Shown piece after piece: positions 2,177-58,974 of a DNA stretch of 64,000 bases. The notes under the pieces are model-generated. The model was not told where the DNA came from. It saw only the letters and a program-made list of their open reading frames with translations, and did no database searches. The position numbers and the translations under genes were made by a program. The number at the start of each line of letters is the position of its first letter. Positions within the stretch are counted from its first letter, which is position 1. Location of the stretch: the sequence record PP400786; one strand, written 5' to 3'. The stretch comes from Escherichia phage FL12.

Positions 2177-2986
2177 ATGCTTAAAGAACAACTGATTGCC
2201 GAAGCGCAGAAAATTGATGCTTCCGTTGCTCTTGATAGTATTTTCGAATCAGTTAATATTTCTCCGGAAGCAAAAGAAACTTTCGGCACTGTATTCGAAG
2301 CTACCGTCAAGCAGCACGCCGTTAAATTAGCTGAATCTCATATCGCTAAAATTGCTGAAAAAGCAGAAGAAGAAGTAGAAAAAAATAAAGAAGAAGCAGA
2401 AGAAAAAGCTGAGAAGAAAATCGCTGAGCAAGCTTCTAAATTCCTTGACCATCTTGCAAAAGAATGGCTCACTGAAAATAAATTAGCAGTAGATAAAGGT
2501 ATCAAAGCCGAACTGTTTGAATCCATGCTTGGTGGATTGAAAGAGCTCTTCATTGAACACAACGTTGTTGTTCCAGAAGAATCAGTTGATGTTGTAGCTG
2601 AAATGGAAGAAGAGCTGCAAGAACATAAAGAAGAATCAGCTCGTCTGTTCGAAGAACTCAATAAGCGTGACGCATATATCAATTATGTGCAGCGTGAAGT
2701 GGCATTGAGCGAAAGTACTAAAGATCTGACTGAGTCTCAAAAAGAAAAAGTCTCTGCTCTGGTCGAAGGTATGGATTATTCAGATGCATTCTCAAGTAAA
2801 TTGAGTGCAATCGTAGAAATGGTGAAGAAATCTAATAAAGATGAAAGCACTATTACTGAGAGTATAAATACTCCTGATACTGAAGCAGCCGGACTGAATT
2901 TCGTCACTGAAGCTGTAGAAGATAAAGCTGCACAGGGTGCAGAAGATATTGTAAGTGTATATGCGAAAGTCGCATCTCGTTTCTAA
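2177..2986 (+). CDS. 22: prohead core scaffold protein gp22
   Basis: 269 aa, Glu/Lys-rich coiled-coil-like sequence, T4 gp22 length and position. Confidence 0.9.
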   Translation: MLKEQLIAEAQKIDASVALDSIFESVNISPEAKETFGTVFEATVKQHAVKLAESHIAKIAEKAEEEVEKNKEEAEEKAEKKIAEQASKFLDHLAKEWLTENKLAVDKGIKAELFESMLGGLKELFIEHNVVVPEESVDVVAEMEEELQEHKEESARLFEELNKRDAYINYVQREVALSESTKDLTESQKEKVSALVEGMDYSDAFSSKLSAIVEMVKKSNKDESTITESINTPDTEAAGLNFVTEAVEDKAAQGAEDIVSVYAKVASRF

Positions 2987-7550: not shown

Positions 7551-8969
7551 TTATGGATAGGTATAGATGATACCAGTTTCTAAAGCAGTTTTATGAATGA
7601 TGTATCCATTACGTGATTCTTGAACATCAACTTCTGGATAGTCTTTCATCATCTTCTGAAGAGTGTAACGATGCAGGTAATATTTACTATCTGGATCGTC
7701 AGTTTTCCAATCTTTACCTTCTTCAGTCATTTTTTGGATTTCATCCATAACCCACCAACCGCACCAGATGTAAGCTGAAGTACGATGTGGAAGAGGATGA
7801 ACATAAGGTAATTCACCTTCTGGTTCTGGAGCAACTTTATCAGTTACCTGAACTTGACCTTCTGCTGTGATAGTTTTGCTATCATAATCAGTAGCAGTAA
7901 CAGTTGCAGTAACTTCAATAGTTTGACTTCCAATAGATGATGTATCAACGGTGTATACATTAGTTGACCCTTCTACAGGAGAAGAATCTTTCTTCCATGA
8001 ATACGCAATTTGTGCTTCTTCTGGAGCATCAGTAACATTAGCAGTAAATGTAGCCGAAGCATCTTGCTGGACGTTAATAGAAGGAGGAGTCAATGTAACC
8101 TGTGGATTCATTGTCTTCTTATTAACTGTCAATGATACTTCATTAGAAGTAACTTCCTTTTCATTGTAATTTTCTGCCGTTACTTGCGCTACGCATTTAA
8201 TTCTTTTTACTCCACTTGTAGTTGGAGTGTAATTGAACGTAGCATTAGTTTCTCCACCAACTTGTGAATCATCTACATACCATTTATATGTAGCAGACGC
8301 TCCAACAGGTTGAGAAACCAAGGCAGCAGTAAATTGAACTGGGGTTCCAATTACTCCAGCTGAAGGACTATCAGGAGTTACGGCTAATGTAGTTGTCTGC
8401 GTCTTTTTATTAACAGTCAGTGACACTTCATTGGAAGTAACTTCCTTTGTATCATAATCTGTCGCGGTTACTTGAGCTACACACTTAATTGTTTTAACTC
8501 CGCTTGTGTCAGGAGTGTAATTGAATGTAGCGTCAGTTGCTTCGCTTACAGGAGAACCGTCAACGTGCCATTGATACGTAGCAGATGCACCTGGCGGCTG
8601 TGAATCTAAGGCAGCGGTAAATTGAACGGCTGTTCCAATCACTCCAGCCGCAGGACTAGCAGGAGTTACAGCTAAGGTAGTCGTTTGTGTCTTATTTTGA
8701 ACTGTGATAGTTGTTGTCGCTTCAGCCGTTTCCGGGCCTCCTTCAGAAAGTGTATTTGTTGCAACAACTTTAATTGTTTTTGTTCCAGCAGGTCCTTTTA
8801 ATACATAATCAAAAGTTGCCGCTGATCCTTCTTGTGGAGCATTATCTACACTCCAAGCATAGGTAATAGTTCCACCTCCAGTTTGACCACTGGGTGCAGC
8901 AGTAAACTGCTGAGTCTGATCTATAACTCCAGTAGGTGTTTTAGGAGTTATATCAACTGTAAAAGTCAT
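7551..8969 (-). CDS. hoc: outer capsid decoration protein Hoc, 472 aa with four Ig-like domains
   Basis: Ig-like repeats rich in T/V/A plus conserved C-terminal capsid-binding tail; about 96 aa longer than T4 Hoc (376 aa). Confidence 0.9.
   Translation of the reverse strand: MTFTVDITPKTPTGVIDQTQQFTAAPSGQTGGGTITYAWSVDNAPQEGSAATFDYVLKGPAGTKTIKVVATNTLSEGGPETAEATTTITVQNKTQTTTLAVTPASPAAGVIGTAVQFTAALDSQPPGASATYQWHVDGSPVSEATDATFNYTPDTSGVKTIKCVAQVTATDYDTKEVTSNEVSLTVNKKTQTTTLAVTPDSPSAGVIGTPVQFTAALVSQPVGASATYKWYVDDSQVGGETNATFNYTPTTSGVKRIKCVAQVTAENYNEKEVTSNEVSLTVNKKTMNPQVTLTPPSINVQQDASATFTANVTDAPEEAQIAYSWKKDSSPVEGSTNVYTVDTSSIGSQTIEVTATVTATDYDSKTITAEGQVQVTDKVAPEPEGELPYVHPLPHRTSAYIWCGWWVMDEIQKMTEEGKDWKTDDPDSKYYLHRYTLQKMMKDYPEVDVQESRNGYIIHKTALETGIIYTYP
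8118..8693 (-). repeat. tandem duplication of a ~288-bp unit (two ~96-aa Ig-like domains) inside hoc
   Basis: Hoc residues 93-188 and 189-284 are near-identical in sequence (KTQTTTLAVTP...EVTSNEVSLTVNK twice). Confidence 0.85.
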
Positions 8970-48180: not shown

Positions 48181-51100
48181 ATGGCCGAGATTAAAAGAAA
48201 GTTCAGAGCAGAAGATGGTCTGGACGCAGGTGGTGATAAAATAATCAACGTAGCTTTAGCTGATCGTACCGTAGGAACTGACGGTGTTAACGTTGATTAC
48301 CTAATTCAAGAAAACACAGTTCAACAATACGATCCAACTCGTGGATATTTAAAAGATTTTGTAATCATTTATGATAACCGCTTTTGGGCTGCTATAAATG
48401 ATATTCCAAAACCGGCAGGAGCTTTTAATAGCGGACGCTGGAGAGCATTACGTACCGATGCTAACTGGATTACAGTCTCATCTGGTTCATATCAATTAAA
48501 ATCAGGTGAAGCTATTTCGGTTAACACTGCAGCTGGTAATGGTATTACATTTACTTTACCATCTACTCCAATTGACGGTGATACTATCGTTCTCCAAGAC
48601 ATTGGAGGAAAACCTGGAGTTAATCAAGTTTTAATTGTAGCTCCAGTGCAAAGTATTGTAAACTTCAGAGGCGAGCAAGTACGTTCAGTACTAATGACTC
48701 ATCCAAAGTCACAGTTAGTTTTAATTTTTAGTAATCGTCTGTGGCAAATGTATGTAGCTGATTATAGTAGAGAAGCTGTAGTTGTAACACCAGCGAATAC
48801 TTATCAAGCGCAATCCAACGATTTTATCGTACGTAGATTTACTTCTGCTGCACCGATAAATATTAAACTTCCGAGATTTGCTAATCATGGCGATATTATT
48901 AATTTCGTTGATTTAGATAAACTGAATCCACTTTATCATACAATTGTTACTACATACGATGAAACGACTTCAGTACAAGAAGTTGGAACTCATTCCATTG
49001 AAGGCCGTACATCTATTGACGGTTTCTTGATGTATGATGATAATGAGAAATTGTGGAGATTGTTTGACGGGGATAGTAAAGCGCGTTTACGCATTATAAC
49101 GACTAATTCTAATATTCGTCCAAATGAAGAAGTTATGGTATTTGGTGCGAATAACGGAACAACTCAAACAATTGAGCTTAAGCTTCCAACTAATATTTCT
49201 GTTGGTGATACTGTTAAAATTTCCATGAATTACATGAGAAAAGGACAAACAGTTAAAATCAAAGCTGCTGATGAAGATAAAATTGCTTCTTCAGTTCAAT
49301 TGCTGCAATTCCCAAAACGCTCAGAATATCCGCCTGAAGCTGAGTGGGTTACAGTCCAAGAATTAGTTTTTAATGGTGAAACTAATTATGTTCCAGTTTT
49401 AGAGCTTGCTTATATAGAAGATTCTGATGGAAAATACTGGGTTGTACAGCAAAACGTTCCAACTGTAGAAAGAGTAGATTCTTTAAATGATTCTACTAGA
49501 GCAAGATTAGGCGTAATTGCTTTAGCTACACAAGCTCAAGCAAATGTCGATTTAGAAAATTCTCCACAAAAAGAATTAGCAATTACTCCAGAAACGTTAG
49601 CTAATCGCACTGCTACTGAAACTCGCAGAGGTATTGCAAGAATAGCAACTACTGCTCAAGTGAATCAGAACACCACATTCTCTTTTGCAGATGACCTTAT
49701 CATTACTCCTAAAAAGCTGAATGAAAGAACTGCTACAGAAACTCGTAGAGGTGTCGCAGAAATTGCTACGCAGCAAGAAACTAATACAGGTACTGATGAT
49801 ACTACAATCATTACTCCTAAAAAGCTTCAAGCTCGTCAAGGTTCTGAATCATTATCTGGTATTGTAACTTTTGTATCTACCGCAGGTGCTACTCCAGCTT
49901 CTAGCCGTGAATTAAATGGTACGAATGTTTATAATAAAAACACTAATAATTTAGTTGTTTCACCTAAAGCTTTGGATCAGTATAAAGCTACGCCTACTCA
50001 ACAGGGTGCAGTAATTTTAGCAGTTGAAAGTGAAGTAATTGCTGGACAAAGTCAGCAAGGATGGGCAAATGCTGTTGTAACGCCAGAAACGTTACATAAA
50101 AAGACATCAACTGATGGAAGAATTGGTTTAATTGAAATTGCTACGCAAAGTGAAGTTAATACAGGAACTGATTATACTCGTGCAGTCACTCCTAAAACTT
50201 TAAATGACCGTAGAGCAACTGAAAGTTTAAGTGGTATAGCTGAAATTGCTACACAAGTTGAATTCGACGCAGGCGTCGACGATACTCGTATCTCTACACC
50301 ATTAAAAATTAAAACCAGATTTAATAGTACTGATCGTACTTCTGTTGTTGCTCTATCTGGATTAGTTGAATCAGGAACTCTCTGGGACCATTATACACTT
50401 AATATTCTTGAAGCAAATGAGACACAGCGTGGTACACTTCGTGTGGCTACACAAGTTGAAGCTGCTGCAGGAACATTAGATAATGTTTTAATAACTCCTA
50501 AAAAGCTTTTAGGTACTAAATCTACCGAATCGCAAGAGGGTGTTATTAAAGTTGCAACTCAGTCTGAAGCTGTGGCTGGAACGTCAGCAAATACTGCTAT
50601 ATCTCCAAAAAATTTAAAATGGATTGTGCAGAGTGAACCTTCTTGGAGAGCAACTACTGCGGTAAGAGGGTTTGTTAAAACTTCATCTGGTTCAATTACA
50701 TTCGTTGGTAATGATACAGTCGGTTCTACCCAAGATTTAGAACTATATGAGAAAAATAGCTATGCAGTATCACCATATGAATTAAACCGTGTATTAGCAA
50801 ATTATTTGCCGTTAAAAGCAAAAGCTGCTGATACAAATTTATTGGATGGTCTAGATTCATCTCAGTTCATTCGTAGGGATATTGCACAGACGGTTAATGG
50901 TTCACTAACCTTAACCCAGCAAACGAATCTGAGTGCCCCTCTTGTATCATCTAGTACTGCTACGTTTGGTGGATCAGTTTCGGCAAATAGTACATTAACT
51001 ATTTCTAATACTGGAACGGCAACTCGTCTGATTTTTGAGAAAGGACCTCAAACTGGAACTAACCCAGCACAGACGATGACTATCAGAGTTTGGGGAAATC

Positions 51101-52053
51101 AGTTTGGCGGCGGTTCAGATACAACACGTTCTACTGTATTTGAAGTTGGTGATGAAACATCTAATCACTTTTATTCTCAACGTAATACAGCTGGAAAGAT
51201 ATTGTTTAATATCAATGGTACTGTAATGCCGATAGATGTAAATGCTTCTGGTTCATTGAATGCGAATGGCGTTGCAACATTTGGTAATTCAGTTACTGCT
51301 AATGGAGAATTTACCAGTAAATCAGCAAATGCTTTTAGAGCAATAAATGGAAATTACGGATTCTTTATTCGTAATGCTGGTAATGACACCTATTTTATGC
51401 TCACTGCAGCCGGTGATCAGTTTGGTGGATTTAATGGATTACGTCCATTATCAATTAATAATCAATCCGGTCAAGTTACAATTGGTGAAGGGCTTATCAT
51501 TAGTAAAGGTGGAGCAACAATTAACAGCGGTGGTTTAACTGTTAACTCGAGAATTCGCTCTCAGGGTACTAAAACATCTGATTTATATACCCGTGCGCCA
51601 ACATCTGATACGGTAGGATTCTGGTCAATTGATATTAACGATTCAGCCACTTATAACCAGTTCCCGGGTTATTTTAAAATGGTTGAAAAAACTAATGAAG
51701 TGACTGGGCTTCCATACTTAGAACGTGGCGAAGAAGTTAAATCTCCTGGTACACTGACTCAGTTTGGTAACACACTTGATTCGCTTTACCAAGATTGGAT
51801 TACTTATCCAACTACCCCAGAAGCACGCACCACTCGCTGGACACGTACATGGCAGAAAACCAAAAATTCTTGGTCGAGTTTTGTTCAGGTATTTGATGGA
51901 GGTAACCCTCCTCAGCCGTCTGATATCGGTGCTTTGCCATCTGATAATGCTACAATGGGGAATCTTACTATTCGTGATTTCTTACGAATTGGTAATGTTC
52001 GCATTATTCCTGACCCAGTGAATAAATCTGTTAAATTTGAATGGATTGAATAA
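48181..52053 (+). CDS. 34: long tail fibre proximal subunit gp34
   Basis: 1290 aa, T4 gp34 length and position; repetitive beta-rich sequence. Confidence 0.95.
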   Translation: MAEIKRKFRAEDGLDAGGDKIINVALADRTVGTDGVNVDYLIQENTVQQYDPTRGYLKDFVIIYDNRFWAAINDIPKPAGAFNSGRWRALRTDANWITVSSGSYQLKSGEAISVNTAAGNGITFTLPSTPIDGDTIVLQDIGGKPGVNQVLIVAPVQSIVNFRGEQVRSVLMTHPKSQLVLIFSNRLWQMYVADYSREAVVVTPANTYQAQSNDFIVRRFTSAAPINIKLPRFANHGDIINFVDLDKLNPLYHTIVTTYDETTSVQEVGTHSIEGRTSIDGFLMYDDNEKLWRLFDGDSKARLRIITTNSNIRPNEEVMVFGANNGTTQTIELKLPTNISVGDTVKISMNYMRKGQTVKIKAADEDKIASSVQLLQFPKRSEYPPEAEWVTVQELVFNGETNYVPVLELAYIEDSDGKYWVVQQNVPTVERVDSLNDSTRARLGVIALATQAQANVDLENSPQKELAITPETLANRTATETRRGIARIATTAQVNQNTTFSFADDLIITPKKLNERTATETRRGVAEIATQQETNTGTDDTTIITPKKLQARQGSESLSGIVTFVSTAGATPASSRELNGTNVYNKNTNNLVVSPKALDQYKATPTQQGAVILAVESEVIAGQSQQGWANAVVTPETLHKKTSTDGRIGLIEIATQSEVNTGTDYTRAVTPKTLNDRRATESLSGIAEIATQVEFDAGVDDTRISTPLKIKTRFNSTDRTSVVALSGLVESGTLWDHYTLNILEANETQRGTLRVATQVEAAAGTLDNVLITPKKLLGTKSTESQEGVIKVATQSEAVAGTSANTAISPKNLKWIVQSEPSWRATTAVRGFVKTSSGSITFVGNDTVGSTQDLELYEKNSYAVSPYELNRVLANYLPLKAKAADTNLLDGLDSSQFIRRDIAQTVNGSLTLTQQTNLSAPLVSSSTATFGGSVSANSTLTISNTGTATRLIFEKGPQTGTNPAQTMTIRVWGNQFGGGSDTTRSTVFEVGDETSNHFYSQRNTAGKILFNINGTVMPIDVNASGSLNANGVATFGNSVTANGEFTSKSANAFRAINGNYGFFIRNAGNDTYFMLTAAGDQFGGFNGLRPLSINNQSGQVTIGEGLIISKGGATINSGGLTVNSRIRSQGTKTSDLYTRAPTSDTVGFWSIDINDSATYNQFPGYFKMVEKTNEVTGLPYLERGEEVKSPGTLTQFGNTLDSLYQDWITYPTTPEARTTRWTRTWQKTKNSWSSFVQVFDGGNPPQPSDIGALPSDNATMGNLTIRDFLRIGNVRIIPDPVNKSVKFEWIE

Positions 52054-52061
52054 GAGGTATT

Positions 52062-53177
52062 ATGGAAAAATTTATGGCAGAGTTTGGACAAGGATATGTC
52101 CAAACGCCATTTTTATCGGAAAGTAATTCAGTAAGATACAAAATAAGTATAGCGGGTTCTTGCCCGCTTTCTACTGCAGGACCATACGTTAAATTTCAGG
52201 ATAATCCTGTTGGAAGTCAAACATTTAGCGCAGGTCTTCATCTAAGAGTTTTTGACCCTTCCACCGGAGCATTAGTTGATAGTAAGTCATATGCTTTTTC
52301 TACTTCAAATGATACTACATCAGCTGCTTTTGTTAGTTTCATGAATTCTTTGGCGAATAATAGACTTGTTGCTATATTAACTAGCGGAAAGGTTAATTTT
52401 CCTCCTGAAGTAGTATCTTGGTTAAGAACCGCAGGAACGTCTGCTTTTCCATCTGATTCTTTATTGTCAAGATTTGACGTATCATATGCTGCCTTTTATA
52501 CTTCTTCTAAAAGAGCTATTGCATTAGAACATGTTAAACTAAGTAATAGAAAAAGCACAGATGATTATCAAACTATTTTAGATGTTGTATTTGACAGTTT
52601 AGAGGACGTTGGAGCCACAGGATTTCCTAAAAGAACATACGAAAGCGTTGAGCAATTTATGTCGGCGGTTGGAGGAACTAATAACGAAATTGCACGTCTA
52701 CCAACTTCAGCTGCCATAAGTAAATTATCTGACTATAATTTAATTCCTGGCGATGTTCTTTATCTCAAAGCACAGTTATATGCTGATGCCGATTTACTTG
52801 CGCTTGGAACTACAAATATATCTATCCGTTTTTATAACTCATCGAATGGATATATTTCCTCGACACAAGCTGAGTTTACCGGGCAAGCTGGTTCTTGGGA
52901 ATTAAAAGAAGATTATGTGGTTGTTCCAGAAAACGCTGTCGGATTTACGATATATGCACAGAGAACTGCGCAAGCTGGTCAAGGTGGCATGAGAAATTTA
53001 AGCTTTTCTGAAGTGTCAAGAAATGGCGGTATTTCAAAACCCGCTGAATTTGGCGTCAATGGTATTCGTGTTAATTATATCTGTGAATCCGCTTCACCTC
53101 CGGATATAATGGTACTTCCTACACAAGCATCGTCTAAAACTGGTAAAGTGTTTGGGCAAGAATTTAGAGAAGTTTAA
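52062..53177 (+). CDS. 35: long tail fibre hinge (knee) protein gp35
   Basis: 371 aa, T4 gp35 length and position. Confidence 0.9.
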   Translation: MEKFMAEFGQGYVQTPFLSESNSVRYKISIAGSCPLSTAGPYVKFQDNPVGSQTFSAGLHLRVFDPSTGALVDSKSYAFSTSNDTTSAAFVSFMNSLANNRLVAILTSGKVNFPPEVVSWLRTAGTSAFPSDSLLSRFDVSYAAFYTSSKRAIALEHVKLSNRKSTDDYQTILDVVFDSLEDVGATGFPKRTYESVEQFMSAVGGTNNEIARLPTSAAISKLSDYNLIPGDVLYLKAQLYADADLLALGTTNISIRFYNSSNGYISSTQAEFTGQAGSWELKEDYVVVPENAVGFTIYAQRTAQAGQGGMRNLSFSEVSRNGGISKPAEFGVNGIRVNYICESASPPDIMVLPTQASSKTGKVFGQEFREV

Positions 53178-53239: not shown

Positions 53240-53929
53240 ATGGCTGATTTAAAAGTAGGTTCAACAACTGGAGGCTCTGTCATTTGGCATCAAGGAAATT
53301 TTCCATTGAATCCAGCCGGTGACGATGTACTCTATAAATCATTTAAAATATATTCAGAATATAACAAACCACAAGCTGCTGATAACGATTTCGTTTCTAA
53401 AGCTAATGGTGGCACAGATTCTCAAGGTTTCCAAAAAGAAGTAGAATTTAAAAAAGGTGTTAAGATTTCTGCAACGTTTCCTGGCGGTTCAAACCTGAAT
53501 GGGTTATATTCTGGCAATGGAGATGGAGCTTCCAGAGAAAAAGCTAACATGGATTTACGTTCATGGTACGGCATTGGTATTTGGAACTCATGCACAGGTG
53601 ATGGGTTCCAGGGACGCACAATCTGGTTTAATGTCAGGCGTGGTACAGTTGAAACACTTGGCGATATTGTTTCGGGCCGGCAAGTTATTTCTAATGCTTC
53701 AGGACCGACCGGCCCAGCACACTTAACTCGCAAAGATTATGTTGATGGAGCAATAAATAATGTTACAGCAAATGCGAACTCTAGAGTGTTGCGTTCTGGT
53801 GACACTATGACAGGTAATTTAACGGCGCCAAACTTTTTCTCGCAGAATCCCGCATCTCAACCTTCACATGTTCCACGATTTGACCAAATCGTAATTAAGG
53901 ATTCTGTTCAAGATTTCGGCTATTATTAA
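53240..53929 (+). CDS. 36: long tail fibre distal connector gp36
   Basis: 229 aa, position between 35 and 37. Confidence 0.9.
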   Translation: MADLKVGSTTGGSVIWHQGNFPLNPAGDDVLYKSFKIYSEYNKPQAADNDFVSKANGGTDSQGFQKEVEFKKGVKISATFPGGSNLNGLYSGNGDGASREKANMDLRSWYGIGIWNSCTGDGFQGRTIWFNVRRGTVETLGDIVSGRQVISNASGPTGPAHLTRKDYVDGAINNVTANANSRVLRSGDTMTGNLTAPNFFSQNPASQPSHVPRFDQIVIKDSVQDFGYY

Positions 53930-53937
53930 GAGGACTT

Positions 53938-56900
53938 ATGGCTACTTTAAAACAAATACAATTTAAAAGAAGCAAAACCGCAGGTGCACGTCCTGCTGCT
54001 TCAGTATTAGCCGAAGGTGAATTGGCTATAAACTTAAAAGATAGAACAATTTTTACTAAAGATGATTCAGGAAATATCATTGATCTAGGTATTGCTAAAG
54101 GCGGCCAGGTTGATGGTGATGTGACTATCAATGGTAAATTAACATTAAATGGCGCGTATGTTCAGACGCTGGCTGGTATTAATACCACGGGTGGTATTAA
54201 TTCTGGGGCCGCTATAAGTGCAACAACTTATTATGCTCGGTCTGGTTCTTTTTATGCTCGTGCTCCAGATGCCAATGCGAATACACATATTTGGTTTGAA
54301 AATAACAATGGTATAGAACGTGGTGTGATTTGGGCTGTTCCGAACACTTCAGACCTTGGCCAGGTCAAAATTCGTGCAAAAACTACAGGTGGTGTTTTTG
54401 CCGGCGAGTACAGTTTCCGCTCTGATGGCCAATTTGAGGTTCCTGTAGCAGTTAAAATCGGCGGGGCCGCGATGCTAACCAAAGACGGTAACATTACATC
54501 GGGTTCATTGTTTGGTGGTAATCTTAATAACTATTTGAATACCATTAAAAATGACATTGTTACTGGTGATAATAAGAAAGTGAGTAAAACCGGTGACACG
54601 ATGTCCGGTAACTTGACTATTAACGCTAACTTAAAAGTCGAAAACTCTAACGGAACGTTTGTTGATTTAGGTTCAGAGAACTCTGATAAGAATAGCAGAT
54701 TAACTCTTGCTCGTAAAATTGGCGATGGCGCTGGTGTAGCAATGCTTAAAGTTACTCCTGAAGGAAACGTGCAATTTGGTTATCAACCTACAGTTGCTAC
54801 TCCATCTCCTACCAAGTATATTCTAATTAAATCTAACGGTCTTGAAGTAGAAGGGGATTTAGTTTTTAAGCAAACTTACCGTGGTGTTGAAGAAGCAGTT
54901 GATATTACTAATCAGACTATTGACCTTAATAGCCTTATTATTAGAGGATCAGATTTAGGTACTCGTAAGCTGTATAAATGCAGATCATCTGGAGGTGGTT
55001 CTAATATATTGAACAAACCTACATCTGATGGCAACTTTACTCTTGAAGTTCTGTCTTTACGCAAGGTTTCTGATACCGATTGGTCATGTAAGCAGACCTT
55101 TACTACAAAGAACAATAATGTTGTAGGCGTATATGTTCGCTACGGGCAAGTCGGCTCATGGACTGAGTGGAAAGAGGTTGTTGCTGGTGTTCAACCAATT
55201 AATTTAGGTGGTACTGGAGCAACTTCTGTAGCTGCTGCCCGTAATAACCTTGGTGTTGGTGAAGGCCAAACTGTAACATTCGGTAATTTAGTTACCAACA
55301 ATTTAAATGCAAACGGACAAGTTAAAATCGGCAGGACCGGCGATGCATTAAGAATTTGGAATGCTGAATATGGTGCTATTTTCCGTCGCTCAGAAACAGC
55401 ATTACATATTATCCCGACTCCTAAAGACGCCGGTGAAAGCGGTGGAATAAGTAATCTTCGTCCATTAAGTATCGGCCTTAATAATGGTATGGTGCAAATG
55501 CGTCATTCTGTTGAGTTAGGCGATGATGGAGCTGGCGGTAATATGATTACTGTTGATAATGATAGTAAAAATGTTGTGATAACTTCTAATGCCAGATTAA
55601 GCCCTAATTTCCGCATGCAATTAGGGCAGGCGTCGTACATTGATGCCGAATGCACTACCTCTGTTCGCCCTGCTGGAGCTGGTTCATTTGCTTCACAGAA
55701 TAATGAAAACGTTCGTGCCCCGCTCTATATGAATATTGATAGGACTGATAATAGTACTTATGTTCCTATTTTAAAACAACGTTATGTTCAAGGAAATAGC
55801 TGTTATTCTTTAGGTACTTTAATAAATAACGGTGATTTTCGTTTACATTACCATGAAGGCGGCGACGGTTCTTCGACAGGTGCAGTTATAAAAGATATTT
55901 CCTGGGAATTTAAACGTAATGGTGATTTCTATTCTCCGGGGCGTTTGCGCACTGCAAACGTTTATATCGGAACTGATGGTAACATTACAGGTGGTTCTGG
56001 TAATTTTGCCAACTTAAATACCACGTTAAACCGTAAAGTTAATGTTGGCGGTTGGGCTGGTAGTTCTTATGGTGGATGGTACAAATTTGCTACGGTAACA
56101 ATTCCTCAAGGTACTGGTACAGTAACTTTTAAGATTTCTGGTGGTGCTGGTTTTAATTTTAAAAGATATAGCCAAGCTTCTATTGCTGAGATAGTTCTTC
56201 GCACAGGTAATAATAATCCTAAAGGCATAAACGCTGTACTATGGAACAGGTCAGACCTAAGTTTTAATCAGATAGCTACTATGAATACATCTGGTGATAC
56301 TTATGATGTATACGTGTTCTGTGACGGTTATACAAATGCATTAGTGGTTGAATATTCTTGTAGTGAAAACTCTTCGGTAACTGTAGTCGGTCTTAACGGA
56401 GGCATTCAACCGGCTGTTGATGCATTGCCTGAGGGACATGTTGTAGGTAAAACAGTTCGTCTGTTAAATAATATTGGCGGAACTTTCGCAGCCGGCGAAT
56501 CTGACATTGTTACTCGTGGTGAATACGTTACTGATAATCAAAAAGGCATGCGTATTAAATCTAACGGTAATAATATCGGTTCTAATGCTGCTATACTTCG
56601 AAATGACGGCAGAAGTTTTTATATTTTAGCTACAGATAAAAATACAGCAGAAAAATCCGATGCAGCTAATGGTGATTGGAACTCATTGCGTCCTTTTACA
56701 ATAAGCATGACTACCGGTGAAGTATCAATGAATAACGGCATAACTGTTCGTAACTATGCCACATTCTATAATGATATTGTTCTCAAAGATAATGGTTATA
56801 TTCACTTTAATAAGTCTGGCAATAATCCAAGAAACATGAGTATATTCCATGCCGGAGATGCCACACGTGGTAACCGTATTGAAATTGCTGATGATTCAAG

Positions 56901-57477
56901 TTATTTAGTTTATTTTCAACGTTTACCGGGCGGCGCTAACCAGTGTACATTTAACTCTGCTGCTCTTTCTGGTATAACGCAGACTAACTCTTTTGGTGTC
57001 AATACATCAAACGCACTTGGTGGAAATAGTATAACGTTTGGTGATAATGACACTGGTATTAAGCAAAATGGTGATGGATTATTAGACATATATACGAACA
57101 GCGTACAAGTGTTCCGTTTCCAAAACGGTGATTTGTACTCATACAAAAATATAAATGCTCCAAACGTTTATATTCGTTCTGATATTCGTTTAAAATCCAA
57201 CTTTAAACCTATCGAAAATGCACTCGATAAAGTTGAAAAACTTAACGGTGTCATTTACGATAAAGCTGAATACATCGGTGGAGAGGCAATTGAAACTGAA
57301 GCGGGTATTGTGGCTCAAACGTTACAAGACGTTTTACCAGAAGCTGTCCGTGAAACAGAAGACAGTAAGGGTAATAAAATACTCACTGTTTCTTCTCAAG
57401 CCCAGATTGCTCTTCTGGTTGAAGCTGTGAAAACACTTTCTTCTCGTGTAAAAGAACTTGAATCTAAACTTATGTAA
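53938..57477 (+). CDS. 37: long tail fibre distal subunit gp37 with C-terminal intramolecular chaperone domain (T2-type)
   Basis: 1179 aa; C-terminal 98 aa starts at conserved S|DIRLK motif (57181) typical of S74-type auto-cleaving chaperone domains. Confidence 0.9.
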   Translation: MATLKQIQFKRSKTAGARPAASVLAEGELAINLKDRTIFTKDDSGNIIDLGIAKGGQVDGDVTINGKLTLNGAYVQTLAGINTTGGINSGAAISATTYYARSGSFYARAPDANANTHIWFENNNGIERGVIWAVPNTSDLGQVKIRAKTTGGVFAGEYSFRSDGQFEVPVAVKIGGAAMLTKDGNITSGSLFGGNLNNYLNTIKNDIVTGDNKKVSKTGDTMSGNLTINANLKVENSNGTFVDLGSENSDKNSRLTLARKIGDGAGVAMLKVTPEGNVQFGYQPTVATPSPTKYILIKSNGLEVEGDLVFKQTYRGVEEAVDITNQTIDLNSLIIRGSDLGTRKLYKCRSSGGGSNILNKPTSDGNFTLEVLSLRKVSDTDWSCKQTFTTKNNNVVGVYVRYGQVGSWTEWKEVVAGVQPINLGGTGATSVAAARNNLGVGEGQTVTFGNLVTNNLNANGQVKIGRTGDALRIWNAEYGAIFRRSETALHIIPTPKDAGESGGISNLRPLSIGLNNGMVQMRHSVELGDDGAGGNMITVDNDSKNVVITSNARLSPNFRMQLGQASYIDAECTTSVRPAGAGSFASQNNENVRAPLYMNIDRTDNSTYVPILKQRYVQGNSCYSLGTLINNGDFRLHYHEGGDGSSTGAVIKDISWEFKRNGDFYSPGRLRTANVYIGTDGNITGGSGNFANLNTTLNRKVNVGGWAGSSYGGWYKFATVTIPQGTGTVTFKISGGAGFNFKRYSQASIAEIVLRTGNNNPKGINAVLWNRSDLSFNQIATMNTSGDTYDVYVFCDGYTNALVVEYSCSENSSVTVVGLNGGIQPAVDALPEGHVVGKTVRLLNNIGGTFAAGESDIVTRGEYVTDNQKGMRIKSNGNNIGSNAAILRNDGRSFYILATDKNTAEKSDAANGDWNSLRPFTISMTTGEVSMNNGITVRNYATFYNDIVLKDNGYIHFNKSGNNPRNMSIFHAGDATRGNRIEIADDSSYLVYFQRLPGGANQCTFNSAALSGITQTNSFGVNTSNALGGNSITFGDNDTGIKQNGDGLLDIYTNSVQVFRFQNGDLYSYKNINAPNVYIRSDIRLKSNFKPIENALDKVEKLNGVIYDKAEYIGGEAIETEAGIVAQTLQDVLPEAVRETEDSKGNKILTVSSQAQIALLVEAVKTLSSRVKELESKLM

Positions 57478-57507
57478 AAGAGGGCTTCGGCCCTCTAAGG
57501 ATTTTTA

Positions 57508-58287
57508 ATGGCAATTGTAGGTGTTCCTGGCTGGATTGGCGAATCTGCCGTGAATGAAACCGGACAACGTTGGATGGATGCTGCGATGAGAGCTGTTCGT
57601 GTTTCAGTTCCCGGTTGGATGAGCTCAATGGCTGGACAATCTAAAGAAATTATTCACACGCTTGGAGCAGACCATAACTTCAATGGTCAATGGTTCCGAG
57701 ATAGATGTTTTGAGGCAGGTAGTACACCTATAGTGTTTAATATTACAGGTGATTTAGTATCATATTCTAAAGATGTTCCTTTATTCTTCATGTATGGAGA
57801 TACACCGAATGAATATGTTCAGTTGAATATACACGGCGTAACGATGTATGGACGTGGCGGTAATGGCGGTAGCAATAGTCCTGGCTCAGCTGGAGGTCAT
57901 TGTATTCAAAACGATATTGGTGGGAGACTAAGAATTAATAATGGTGGAGCTATTGCAGGCGGCGGCGGCGGCGGCGGCGGCGGTAACAGGGGTAGACTAG
58001 TATTTGGTGGCGGCGGTGGTCGTCCATTTGGTGCTGGTGGGTCTTCCTCTCATATGAGTGCTGGTGCAACCGCTGGCACCATTTACGCTCCGGGTGCAGG
58101 ATCTGTCGGTGAGGGGTCTCTTAGTGCATATACAGGCGGGTCTGGTGGTGAAGTTGGCTCCGCAGGAGGTAGATGTAATACTCACGGTGCCGGTACAGAA
58201 TATAACGGCGGTGCTGCCGGTTATGCCGTCATAGGATCTACACCGACATGGCAAAACGTTGGAGCAATATATGGTCCAAGAGTATAA
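57508..58287 (+). CDS. 38: tail fibre tip adhesin gp38 (T2-type, glycine-rich motifs)
   Basis: 259 aa with poly-Gly/Gly-rich motifs separated by variable segments; located after gene 37 and before holin t. Confidence 0.88.
57958..57984 (+). repeat. (GGC)8-GGT trinucleotide repeat encoding a 9-Gly run in gp38
   Basis: ggcggcggcggcggcggcggcggcggt read directly. Confidence 0.9.
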
Positions 58288-58317: not shown

Positions 58318-58974
58318 ATGGCAGCACCTAGAATATCATTTTCGCCCTCTGATATTCTATTTGGTGTTCTAGATCGCTTGTTCAAAGATAACGCTACCGG
58401 GAAGGTTCTTGCTTCCCGAGTAGCTGTCGTAATTCTTTTGTTTATAATGGCGATTGTTTGGTATAGGGGAGATAGTTTCTTTGAGTACTATAAGCAATCA
58501 AAGTATGAAACATACAGTGAAATTATTGAAAAGGAAAGAAATGCACGCTTTGAATCTGTCGCCCTGGAACAACTCCAGATAGTTCATATATCATCTGAGG
58601 CAGACTTTAGTGCGGTGTATTCTTTCCGCCCTAAAAACTTAAACTATTTTGTTGATATTATAGCATACGAAGGAAAATTACCTTCGACAATAAGTGAAAA
58701 ATCACTTGGAGGATATCCTGTTGATAAAACTATGGATGAATATACAGTTCATTTAAATGGACGTCATTATTATTCCAACTCAAAATTTGCTTTTTTACCA
58801 ACTAAAAAGCCTACTCCCGAAATAAACTACATGTACAGTTGTCCATATTTTAATTTGGATAATATCTATGCTGGAACAATAACAATGTACTGGTATAGAA
58901 ATGATCATATAAGTAATGACCGCCTTGAATCAATATGTGCTCAGGCGGCCAGAATATTAGGAAGGGCTAAATAA
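58318..58974 (+). CDS. t: holin T
   Basis: 218 aa; N-terminal transmembrane segment and large periplasmic domain; T4 holin length. Confidence 0.93.
   Translation: MAAPRISFSPSDILFGVLDRLFKDNATGKVLASRVAVVILLFIMAIVWYRGDSFFEYYKQSKYETYSEIIEKERNARFESVALEQLQIVHISSEADFSAVYSFRPKNLNYFVDIIAYEGKLPSTISEKSLGGYPVDKTMDEYTVHLNGRHYYSNSKFAFLPTKKPTPEINYMYSCPYFNLDNIYAGTITMYWYRNDHISNDRLESICAQAARILGRAK

Follow-up and report, generated by a model that had tools for sequence, protein, structure and literature searches.

A perfect (GGC)8 repeat in gene 38 of a T2-like Tequatrovirus is probably the coding image of a nine-glycine adhesin helix

We analyzed a 64,000-nucleotide (nt) stretch of phage DNA (sequence record PP400786), called the window below, in which gene 38 encodes the receptor-recognizing adhesin gp38 and contains a perfect (GGC)8 trinucleotide repeat. 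A first-pass annotation of the same DNA, made from the sequence alone, had proposed that this repeat is slippage prone and could serve as a host range contingency locus. Our analysis places the repeat in the codons of a nine-glycine helix, and we consider it probable that it is the coding image of that helix, reshaped by slippage under selection for length.

Gene 38 and its repeat

The following features define the locus.

53938 to 57477, plus strand: gene 37, distal long-tail-fibre subunit of 1,179 amino acids with a C-terminal intramolecular chaperone (Peptidase_S74, residues 1081 to 1138; E value, 3.4e-15)
57508 to 58287, plus strand: gene 38, receptor-recognizing adhesin gp38 of the T2/T6 type, an open reading frame (ORF) of 259 amino acids
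57958 to 57981, plus strand: perfect (GGC)8 trinucleotide repeat, in frame, detected by Tandem Repeats Finder (TRF)
58318 to 58974, plus strand: gene t, holin, the conserved neighbor 3' of gene 38 (Phage_holin_T; E value, 7e-118)

Gene 38 codes for an adhesin that sits as a monomer on the end of the long tail fibre in a T2-like Tequatrovirus. The Pfam family GP38 (PF05268) covers residues 47 to 259 (E value, 1.1e-69; 235 bits against a cutoff of 25), and Gp38_N (PF21721) covers residues 1 to 42 (E value, 2.9e-18; 66 bits against a cutoff of 25). The protein is identical at 259 of 259 residues to the adhesin of phage FL12 (XAO16660.1), which has been found experimentally to be OmpA dependent (PMC12032242), and on the strength of this identity the receptor of the window gp38 is effectively known to be OmpA. 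The adhesin itself is therefore already known, and the allele has been characterized at the protein level. No GenBank record in the searched phage collection matched gene 38 over its full length at more than 90.5%. The description of the product as a T2-type gp38 adhesin is thus borne out by Pfam, by matches to solved structures, by a structural model, and by the identity with FL12.

The order of gene 37 with its self-cleaving chaperone end, gene 38, and holin gene t is common to more than 20 relatives. A predicted cleavage motif, VYIR/SD, lies at residues 1077 to 1082 of gp37, ahead of the Peptidase_S74 chaperone, and the cleavage site of this chaperone is known from related phages (PMC7917993). 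Antisense ORFs over the tract (e.g., 57997 to 58254, minus strand) are without support.

The repeat is as perfect as the first-pass annotation had stated. TRF reports a period-3 array from 57958 to 57983 with 8.7 copies, 100% matches, and the consensus GGC, and the repeat is in frame within gp38 [(57958 - 57508)/3 = 150], its eight GGC codons together with one GGT codon encoding Gly151 to Gly159. An uninterrupted simple-sequence repeat (SSR) is present, then, inside a host interaction gene. The 15-mer (GGC)5 occurs at this site alone in the window, against 0.01 occurrences expected from shuffles. GGC accounts for eight of the nine codons of the run; its share of the glycine codons is 22% elsewhere in gp38 and 17% in seven other window genes. 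Across the relatives (L001 to L067), GGC makes up 64% of glycine-run codons, versus 17 to 22% of the window's glycine codons elsewhere. Slippage homogenization, translational selection, and mutational bias are candidate causes of this excess of GGC in the run.

Architecture of gp38 and position of the tract

Five glycine-rich motifs (GRMs) and four hypervariable segments (HVSs) were located in gp38, all on the plus strand, as follows.

57508 to 57645: N-terminal attachment domain (residues 1 to 46; Gp38_N), with W9, W22, and W37, which plug into the gp37 tip
57850 to 57870: GRM1 (GRGGNGG, residues 115 to 121), with G115, R116, G117, G118, and G120 invariant in 50 homologues
57871 to 57891: HVS1 (SNSPGSA, residues 122 to 128), a distal loop, from alignment with the PP01-like, T6, and M1 gp38 proteins
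57958 to 57984: the Gly151 to Gly159 run (GRM2), equivalent to polyglycine-II (PGII) helix 3 from alignment to S16 gp38
57985 to 58005: HVS2 (NRGRLVF, residues 160 to 166), equivalent by alignment to the receptor contact loop-B, which lies at the distal tip
58006 to 58041: GRM3, the second glycine run (residues 167 to 178), with G167 to G171, P173, G175, and G178 invariant in 50 homologues
58042 to 58134: HVS3 region (residues 179 to 209), from alignment
58135 to 58170: GRM4 (residues 210 to 221), from motif position, with a recombination breakpoint nearby
58171 to 58221: HVS4 (residues 222 to 233) and GRM5 (GGAAG, residues 234 to 238)

The alternation of glycine-rich motifs with variable segments noted at first pass is accordingly found as a complete series from GRM1 and HVS1 through GRM5, and the peptide strings that had been quoted are present, with the second glycine run at residues 167 to 178 and GGSGG at residues 210 to 214. 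Glycine makes up 63 of the 259 residues of gp38 and 48 of the 126 between residues 115 and 240. In the attachment domain, W9 and W22 are invariant and W37 is nearly invariant among 50 homologues; the role of these tryptophans has been described (PMC6851490), and the segment that encodes them differs in ancestry from the remainder of gene 38.

The closest solved structures are the gp38 proteins of PP01 (PDB 9v85; E value, 1.7e-79) and S16 (PDB 6f45_D; E value, 3.3e-50). An AlphaFold2 model of gp38 built from 50 homologues had a mean predicted local distance difference test score (pLDDT) of 87, with values above 90 across the C-terminal two thirds and of about 97 at Gly151 to Gly159. Compared by Foldseek, the model matched 9v85 with a template modeling (TM) score of 0.87 and a root mean square deviation of 2.2 Å over 220 columns, and 6f45_D with a TM score of 0.76 (E value, 2e-20); none of the other PDB entries found by Foldseek was close to it.

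Gly151 to Gly159 was aligned by HMMER to G151 to G158 plus F159 of S16 gp38, a stretch that the authors of the S16 structure name "helix 3; 151-GGGGGGGG-158" (PMC6851490). In S16, helix 3 is a long PGII helix in a three-layer sandwich of ten such helices, the central GRM 3 forms a saturated backbone hydrogen bond network to neighboring helices, and the hypervariable segments are the distal loops (PMC6851490). In PP01, loop-A comprises W119 to I124 and loop-B (Q161 to V170) is required for adsorption (PMC12892980), and the adaptive substitutions Y159H, Q161H, and N163H fall in loop-B (PMC6027323). No viable T6 was obtained when GRM2, GRM3, or GRM4 was deleted completely (PMC3157838). Because the tract aligns with S16 helix 3, the alignment and the published numbering identify Gly151 to Gly159 as core PGII helix 3 scaffold rather than a variable or receptor loop and, judged from the same sequence comparison, as the stalk that bears the receptor loop-B.

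Glycine number, not the DNA repeat, is conserved

Scans that used the conserved flank upstream of the tract found three loci among viral contigs, four among metagenome contigs, and none among genome contigs, and the related-locus search yielded 15. Since these loci were too few for statistics, GenBank phage matches and protein clusters were used, and 382 gp38 sequences were pooled, among the matches listed, and classified by loop-B type. For the statement that a record has no indel by BLAST span, only matches that spanned the whole tract and both flanks were counted, and the 1-84 partial matches were dropped.

In the loop-B classes with nine glycines as the modal number (G9), exactly nine glycines were found in 245 of 253 (97%) distinct proteins among the matches listed, and the eight shorter runs had 8, 7, 7, 7, 6, 6, 6, and 4 glycines. 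Proteins of the AIA-NRG type included 3 short variants in 119 listed sequences. No net indel was found in any of the 28 GenBank records of the NRG/NYG loop-B type that span the tract and its flanks; because not one of these 28 reaches 100% identity, the perfect repeat is absent from all of them.

The codons vary where the glycines do not. Twenty-three distinct G9 alleles showed 18 third-base patterns, with GGC at 64%, GGT at 28%, GGA at 6%, and GGG at 2%, and the longest perfect GGC run in other G9 alleles was 6 (range, 1 to 6); given 64% GGC usage, (GGC)8 is expected in approximately 3 to 4% of alleles. The tract of the window differs from that of phage BF15, (GGCGGCGGT)3, by two synonymous T-to-C transitions, out of a total of just five differences over 503 nt (gene positions 138 to 640), and the probability that at least two of five differences land in the 27-nt tract by chance is about 0.03 (hand binomial calculation). 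Since the perfect repeat is private to the window allele and the wobble positions drift freely, the DNA repeat is not conserved across relatives. The constancy of nine glycines, the absence of indels from the 28 same-loop records, and the wobble drift therefore indicate that selection is visible on glycine number and not on the DNA repeat.

Two further observations concern the wider distribution of the tract. The depositors of phage kvi (L033; MN850615) annotated positions 615 to 640, the homologous tract, there (GGTGGC)4GGT, as a "repeat_region." Adhesins of the gp38 family with a nine-glycine run are also common in assemblies of Escherichia coli, Shigella, and Salmonella (clusters P0034, P0036, P0038, P0086, and P0119), on contigs of approximately 108 to 112 kb and approximately 224 kb, at least one of them labeled a plasmid, and in the P0119 loci examined the neighboring fibre gene carries a Phage_fiber_2 domain. 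The carriers resemble elements outside the T-even group, perhaps jumbo phages or phage-plasmids, that have picked up the adhesin.

Slippage and length variants in relatives

Compared with codon-shuffled controls, G9 tracts show much greater internal periodicity, with 0 of 5,000 permutations reaching the observed value, a result that is suggestive rather than strict because the alleles are related. The repeated units differ among lineages and include (GGC)n, (GGTGGC)4, (GGCGGCGGT)3, and (GGTGGTGGC)3. Relatives carry the following variants of the glycine runs.

L038, a Logan contig: (GGC)7GGT and, as in the window, the NRGRLVF loop; 8 glycines
L039 and L040, from two unrelated sequencing runs: (GGTGGC)3GGA; 7 glycines
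L052, a protein in two NCBI assemblies: (GGTGGTGGC)2; 6 glycines; the six parent contigs (L053 to L058) have (GGTGGTGGC)3
PYps14T and AV121: (GGCGGCGGT)3GGCGGCGGA; 12 glycines (G12), one 9-nt unit above the G9 allele L047
PYps32T, a cultured isolate: plus 9 nt (G10-V-G); 10 glycines, V, and 1 glycine
D5505, a cultured isolate: one GGT lost from the second glycine run (GRM3), which has 4 glycines
PYps55T, a cultured isolate: GGQ duplicated in GRM1

PYps14T is a Yersinia phage from Berlin and AV121 an E. coli phage from Denmark; both are G12 and viable. These two phages and PYps32T show that the tract can lengthen as well as shorten. By analogy with these homologous tracts, which differ by whole units of 3, 6, or 9 nt, the earlier proposal that the repeat is slippage prone and yields in-frame glycine variants appears well founded. 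Searches of PubMed Central open access and bioRxiv for gp38 together with slippage returned nothing relevant.

The Yersinia phages ZN18 and PYps47T have tandem duplications of loop-B/HVS2 bounded by both glycine runs. The duplicated loop-B (YYSPFSQMRLTF) plus glycine run occurs in L034, L001, and L042 (ZN18) and in L065 (PYps47T), in which gp38 has 277 to 278 amino acids. At the opposite extreme, a Logan contig from SRR30543803 (L041), which carries P0027, encodes a gp38 of 238 amino acids without HVS2 and a gp37 of just 477 amino acids; because of the short gp37, this contig is suspected to be an assembly collapse across repeats, although it may instead be a heavily deleted fibre locus. The HVS2 deletion variants P0024, P0027, and P0031, which come from the same automated assemblies, were treated as doubtful. 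The RefSeq gp38 of phage HP3 (P0180; YP_010278715) is frameshifted inside the glycine run (187 amino acids), while that of HP3.1 (P0181) is intact at 260 amino acids; deposited genomes evidently suffer sequencing errors, or contain true frameshifts, at this tract.

Mosaic structure of gene 38

The gene 38 allele is a mosaic of three parts. Its breakpoints fall close to gene positions 137 and 640 (57644 and 58147 of the window), and the second of them is near GRM4. The closest relatives of the three parts are listed below.

Gene positions 1 to 137: metagenomic allele P0001 and NIC06P2 (2 and 4 mismatches)
Gene positions 138 to 640: BF15 (5 mismatches in 503)
Gene positions 641 to 780: NBG2 and T4_ev240 (5 mismatches in 140; BF15, 15 in 140)

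The adaptive mutations of gp38 described in the literature are loop point substitutions (PMC6027323, PMC12529663). In this family, the main routes by which host range shifts are substitutions within hypervariable loops and modular recombination in or close to conserved motifs; the window allele itself exemplifies the latter.

Other features of the window

The genes upstream of gene 37 and one noncoding element are listed here.

48181 to 52053: gene 34
52062 to 53177, plus strand: gene 35
53240 to 53929: gene 36
57479 to 57496, plus strand: terminator-like GC-rich hairpin (7 bp, UUCG tetraloop, T-rich tail) between the stop of gene 37 and the start of gene 38

Genes 34, 35, and 36 belong to the tail fibre end of a T-even (Tequatrovirus) genome, and asiA and motA-type genes lie on the opposite strand beyond holin gene t. 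The hairpin has a folding energy of -13.4 kcal/mol (z score, -2.8), and the equivalent site in phage G2133 is annotated as a putative terminator; the hairpin may act as a terminator or as an RNA stabilizer. The gp35 protein has a weak Pfam match to ILEI (interleukin-like EMT inducer) at residues 58 to 127 (E value, 3.5e-8), which is recorded likewise for gp35 of the relative L041.

A 472-amino-acid ORF at 7551 to 8969 (minus strand) has matches to Ig/PKD-like domains and contains a 288-nt tandem repeat at 8113 to 8693 (2 copies, 78% identical); its features suggest a head decoration protein of the Hoc-like type in which an Ig domain is duplicated. Another coding trinucleotide array of the window is an imperfect GAA (Glu) repeat of approximately 17 units at 2357 to 2418, within the T4-type capsid scaffolding protein gene at 2177 to 2986 (plus strand; Pfam T4_CASP; E value, 1e-89).

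Origin of the repeat

In the explanation that we favor, (GGC)8GGT would encode a nine-glycine PGII helix 3 that runs through the center of the glycine sandwich and holds loop-B (NRGRLVF) on its distal end. This helix would need glycine throughout, and its length of nine would be held by stabilizing selection on the fold. Given the all-glycine requirement and the fixed helix length, the DNA repeat would be a by-product of coding polyglycine with two favored codons, GGC and GGT. The tract has probably been reshaped repeatedly by replication slippage, and its perfect form was probably reached from a BF15-like (GGCGGCGGT)3 tract by two synonymous T-to-C changes. Because the repeat is perfect in this allele, (GGC)8 is probably the most slippage-prone state of the tract, and in-frame variants gaining or losing one or more glycines would arise at an elevated rate. 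We infer this elevated rate, as well as any fitness effect of the variants, from the comparison with relatives. Some of the glycine number variants are probably viable, and they would be incidental mutations of the scaffold rather than products of an evolved switch.

Several observations weigh against this explanation. The compared alleles lack phylogenetic independence, several of the short variants come from automated assemblies, and coding constraint by itself does not fully account for the enrichment of GGC (64% versus 17%). Within the T6-like YYS class of loop-B, in-frame changes in the run, HVS2, or GRM3 occur in at least 6 of 124 GenBank records, viable G12 phages included. The sibling phages PYps32T and PYps47T, isolated from a zoo, have gp38 genes that are identical outside the tract/HVS2 stretch (mismatches, 0 of 705); one genome is 45 nt longer than the other, which is exactly the difference in gp38, and over 15 kb downstream their BLAST scores are identical with a 45-nt offset. 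PYps32T lyses 87 and PYps47T 52 of 128 Yersinia pseudotuberculosis strains, and PYps14T (G12) lyses 78 and its sibling PYps15T (no indel), from the same zoo, 85 of the same number (PMC8762354). As siblings that differ in gp38 only here have unlike host ranges, a functional effect of changes at the tract site is conceivable and has to be allowed for; these contrasts are correlations only.

A true contingency locus, as proposed at first pass, would be a hypermutable, reversible in-frame switch whose glycine number variants re-present loop-B and provide standing diversity of receptor and host range (bet-hedging). The perfect eight-unit SSR inside a receptor-binding protein would suit such a switch, as would its position adjoining loop-B, which is needed for PP01 adsorption, and the unit-sized gains and losses of the homologous tract in nature, viable isolates included. 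The near-isogenic pairs PYps14T/PYps15T and PYps32T/PYps47T are polymorphic here and differ in host range (PMC8762354), and at other genomic sites T2 and T4 do rely on contingency loci driven by slippage (bioRxiv 10.1101/2025.10.21.683753). We nevertheless regard this explanation as improbable: the perfect repeat is not conserved and is interrupted synonymously in relatives, the length is nine in 97% of listed relatives and in 28 of 28 same-loop GenBank records, the tract is core scaffold and not a loop, and the known adaptive gp38 changes are point substitutions. No phenotype is tied to glycine number itself, the PYps32T/PYps47T contrast including a loop duplication, and homopolymer SSRs are depleted in tail fibre genes (bioRxiv 10.1101/2025.10.21.683753). 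A contingency locus for host range is accordingly unproven and, for this allele class, not favored. The first-pass annotation had tied its proposal to length polymorphism at the repeat and to host range mutations in gp38. Polymorphism occurs in homologous tracts and in none of the 28 same-loop records, and host range mutations do map to gp38, so the contingency idea survives as a minority hypothesis. In a wider form of it, the glycine-run tracts of gp38 would constitute an undescribed class of in-frame contingency loci, in which slippage by 3, 6, or 9 nt resizes helix 3 and sometimes duplicates loop-B. We give this form little credence; if it were true, loop repositioning would supply T-even phage populations with standing variation in host range (OmpA, Tsx, or Yersinia), and (GGC)8 would be the most mutable state.

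The conserved GGY-rich DNA of the motifs could instead serve mainly as microhomology for exchanging, duplicating, and deleting hypervariable segments between alleles, in keeping with a 1998 proposal of Tetart et al. for the modular shuffling of gp38 (cited in PMC3157838 and PMC12032242). The mosaic allele with breakpoints near 137 and 640, the latter near GRM4, the tandem HVS2 duplications of ZN18 and PYps47T between the two glycine runs, and the database variants with HVS2 deleted between the runs all point in this direction. However, no breakpoint lies at (GGC)8 in this allele, in which positions 138 to 640 are continuous with BF15, a 27-nt tract is short for homologous exchange, and the HVS2 deletion contig L041 (P0027), with its truncated gp37, may be an assembly collapse. 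As an account of the repeat, a recombination substrate is thus possible but somewhat doubtful; such a role is compatible with the explanation that we favor and with the data. A function at the RNA level, in which the mRNA structure of the GGC repeat slows ribosomes or regulates gp38 expression, is very improbable: a 111-nt stretch folds at -40.3 kcal/mol (z score, -2.06), but the interrupted BF15 tract folds equally well (z score, -2.39), the wobble bases that would form the structure are not conserved, and no compensatory pattern is visible. Errors do occur at the tract, as in the frameshifted RefSeq HP3 gp38 compared with the intact HP3.1, and a perfect repeat in a GC-rich, low-complexity stretch might be a product of sequencing or assembly. 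Here, such an artifact is hardly credible because the translation equals the independently deposited FL12 protein exactly; the reading frame and the nine-glycine length are, moreover, just as in relatives, and only two synonymous differences separate the tract from that of BF15.

Relation to known systems and significance

The nearest relatives of the adhesin are the "type 2" adhesins of FL12, FL18, and FL20; residues 47 to 259 of the window gp38 are 94% identical to FL20 and 90% identical to FL18, and the FL12 gene occupies the same place between gene 37 and holin gene t. Plaque formation by these three phages on strain K-12 is OmpA dependent, and their host range in the ECOR collection is narrow (PMC12032242); the repeat is not discussed in that paper. 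The gp38 proteins of the Salmonella phage S16 (PDB 6F45) and the E. coli O157 phage PP01 (PDB 9V85) share the same attachment helices, beta-helix, and PGII sandwich with distal hypervariable loops. They differ from the window gp38 in that helix 3 has 8 glycines in S16 and PP01 and 9 in the window protein, loop-B has 8 residues in S16 and 13 in PP01-like proteins versus 7, and the receptor is OmpC rather than, by identity with FL12, OmpA.

The tract resembles loci of SSR phase variation in bacteria and in T2 and T4 in that an SSR lies in a host interaction gene, slippage is expected, and, for the phages, the lineage is the same T-even one. The contingency loci of T2 and T4 are homopolymer runs of at least 6 nt that give reversible on/off frameshifts in agt and rIIA, with a mean mutant frequency at homopolymer sites of approximately 3e-4, and gp38 is not mentioned among them (bioRxiv 10.1101/2025.10.21.683753). 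The window tract, in contrast, has a unit of 3 nt (6 or 9 nt in relatives), and its changes stay in frame. Duplications of the His box of T4 gp37 expand host range, according to Tetart et al. (1996) as cited in PMC3157838. They are similar in being in-frame duplications of a short tip segment through repeated motifs, and the nearest analogues are the HVS2 duplications of ZN18 and PYps47T; they differ in affecting gp37 instead of gp38 and in their motif, and the window has no such duplication. In PubMed Central open access and bioRxiv, we found neither whole-unit slippage of gp38 glycine tracts under length constraint nor viable phages with a 12-glycine helix or a duplicated loop-B.

The gp38 adhesin is the main determinant of host range in most T-even phages and is an engineering target for therapeutic phages. 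For such work, the glycine tracts carry a warning, as they are error prone and indel prone in phage assemblies and production stocks. For the biology of the family, they pose the question of whether the length of a PGII helix can tune receptor recognition.

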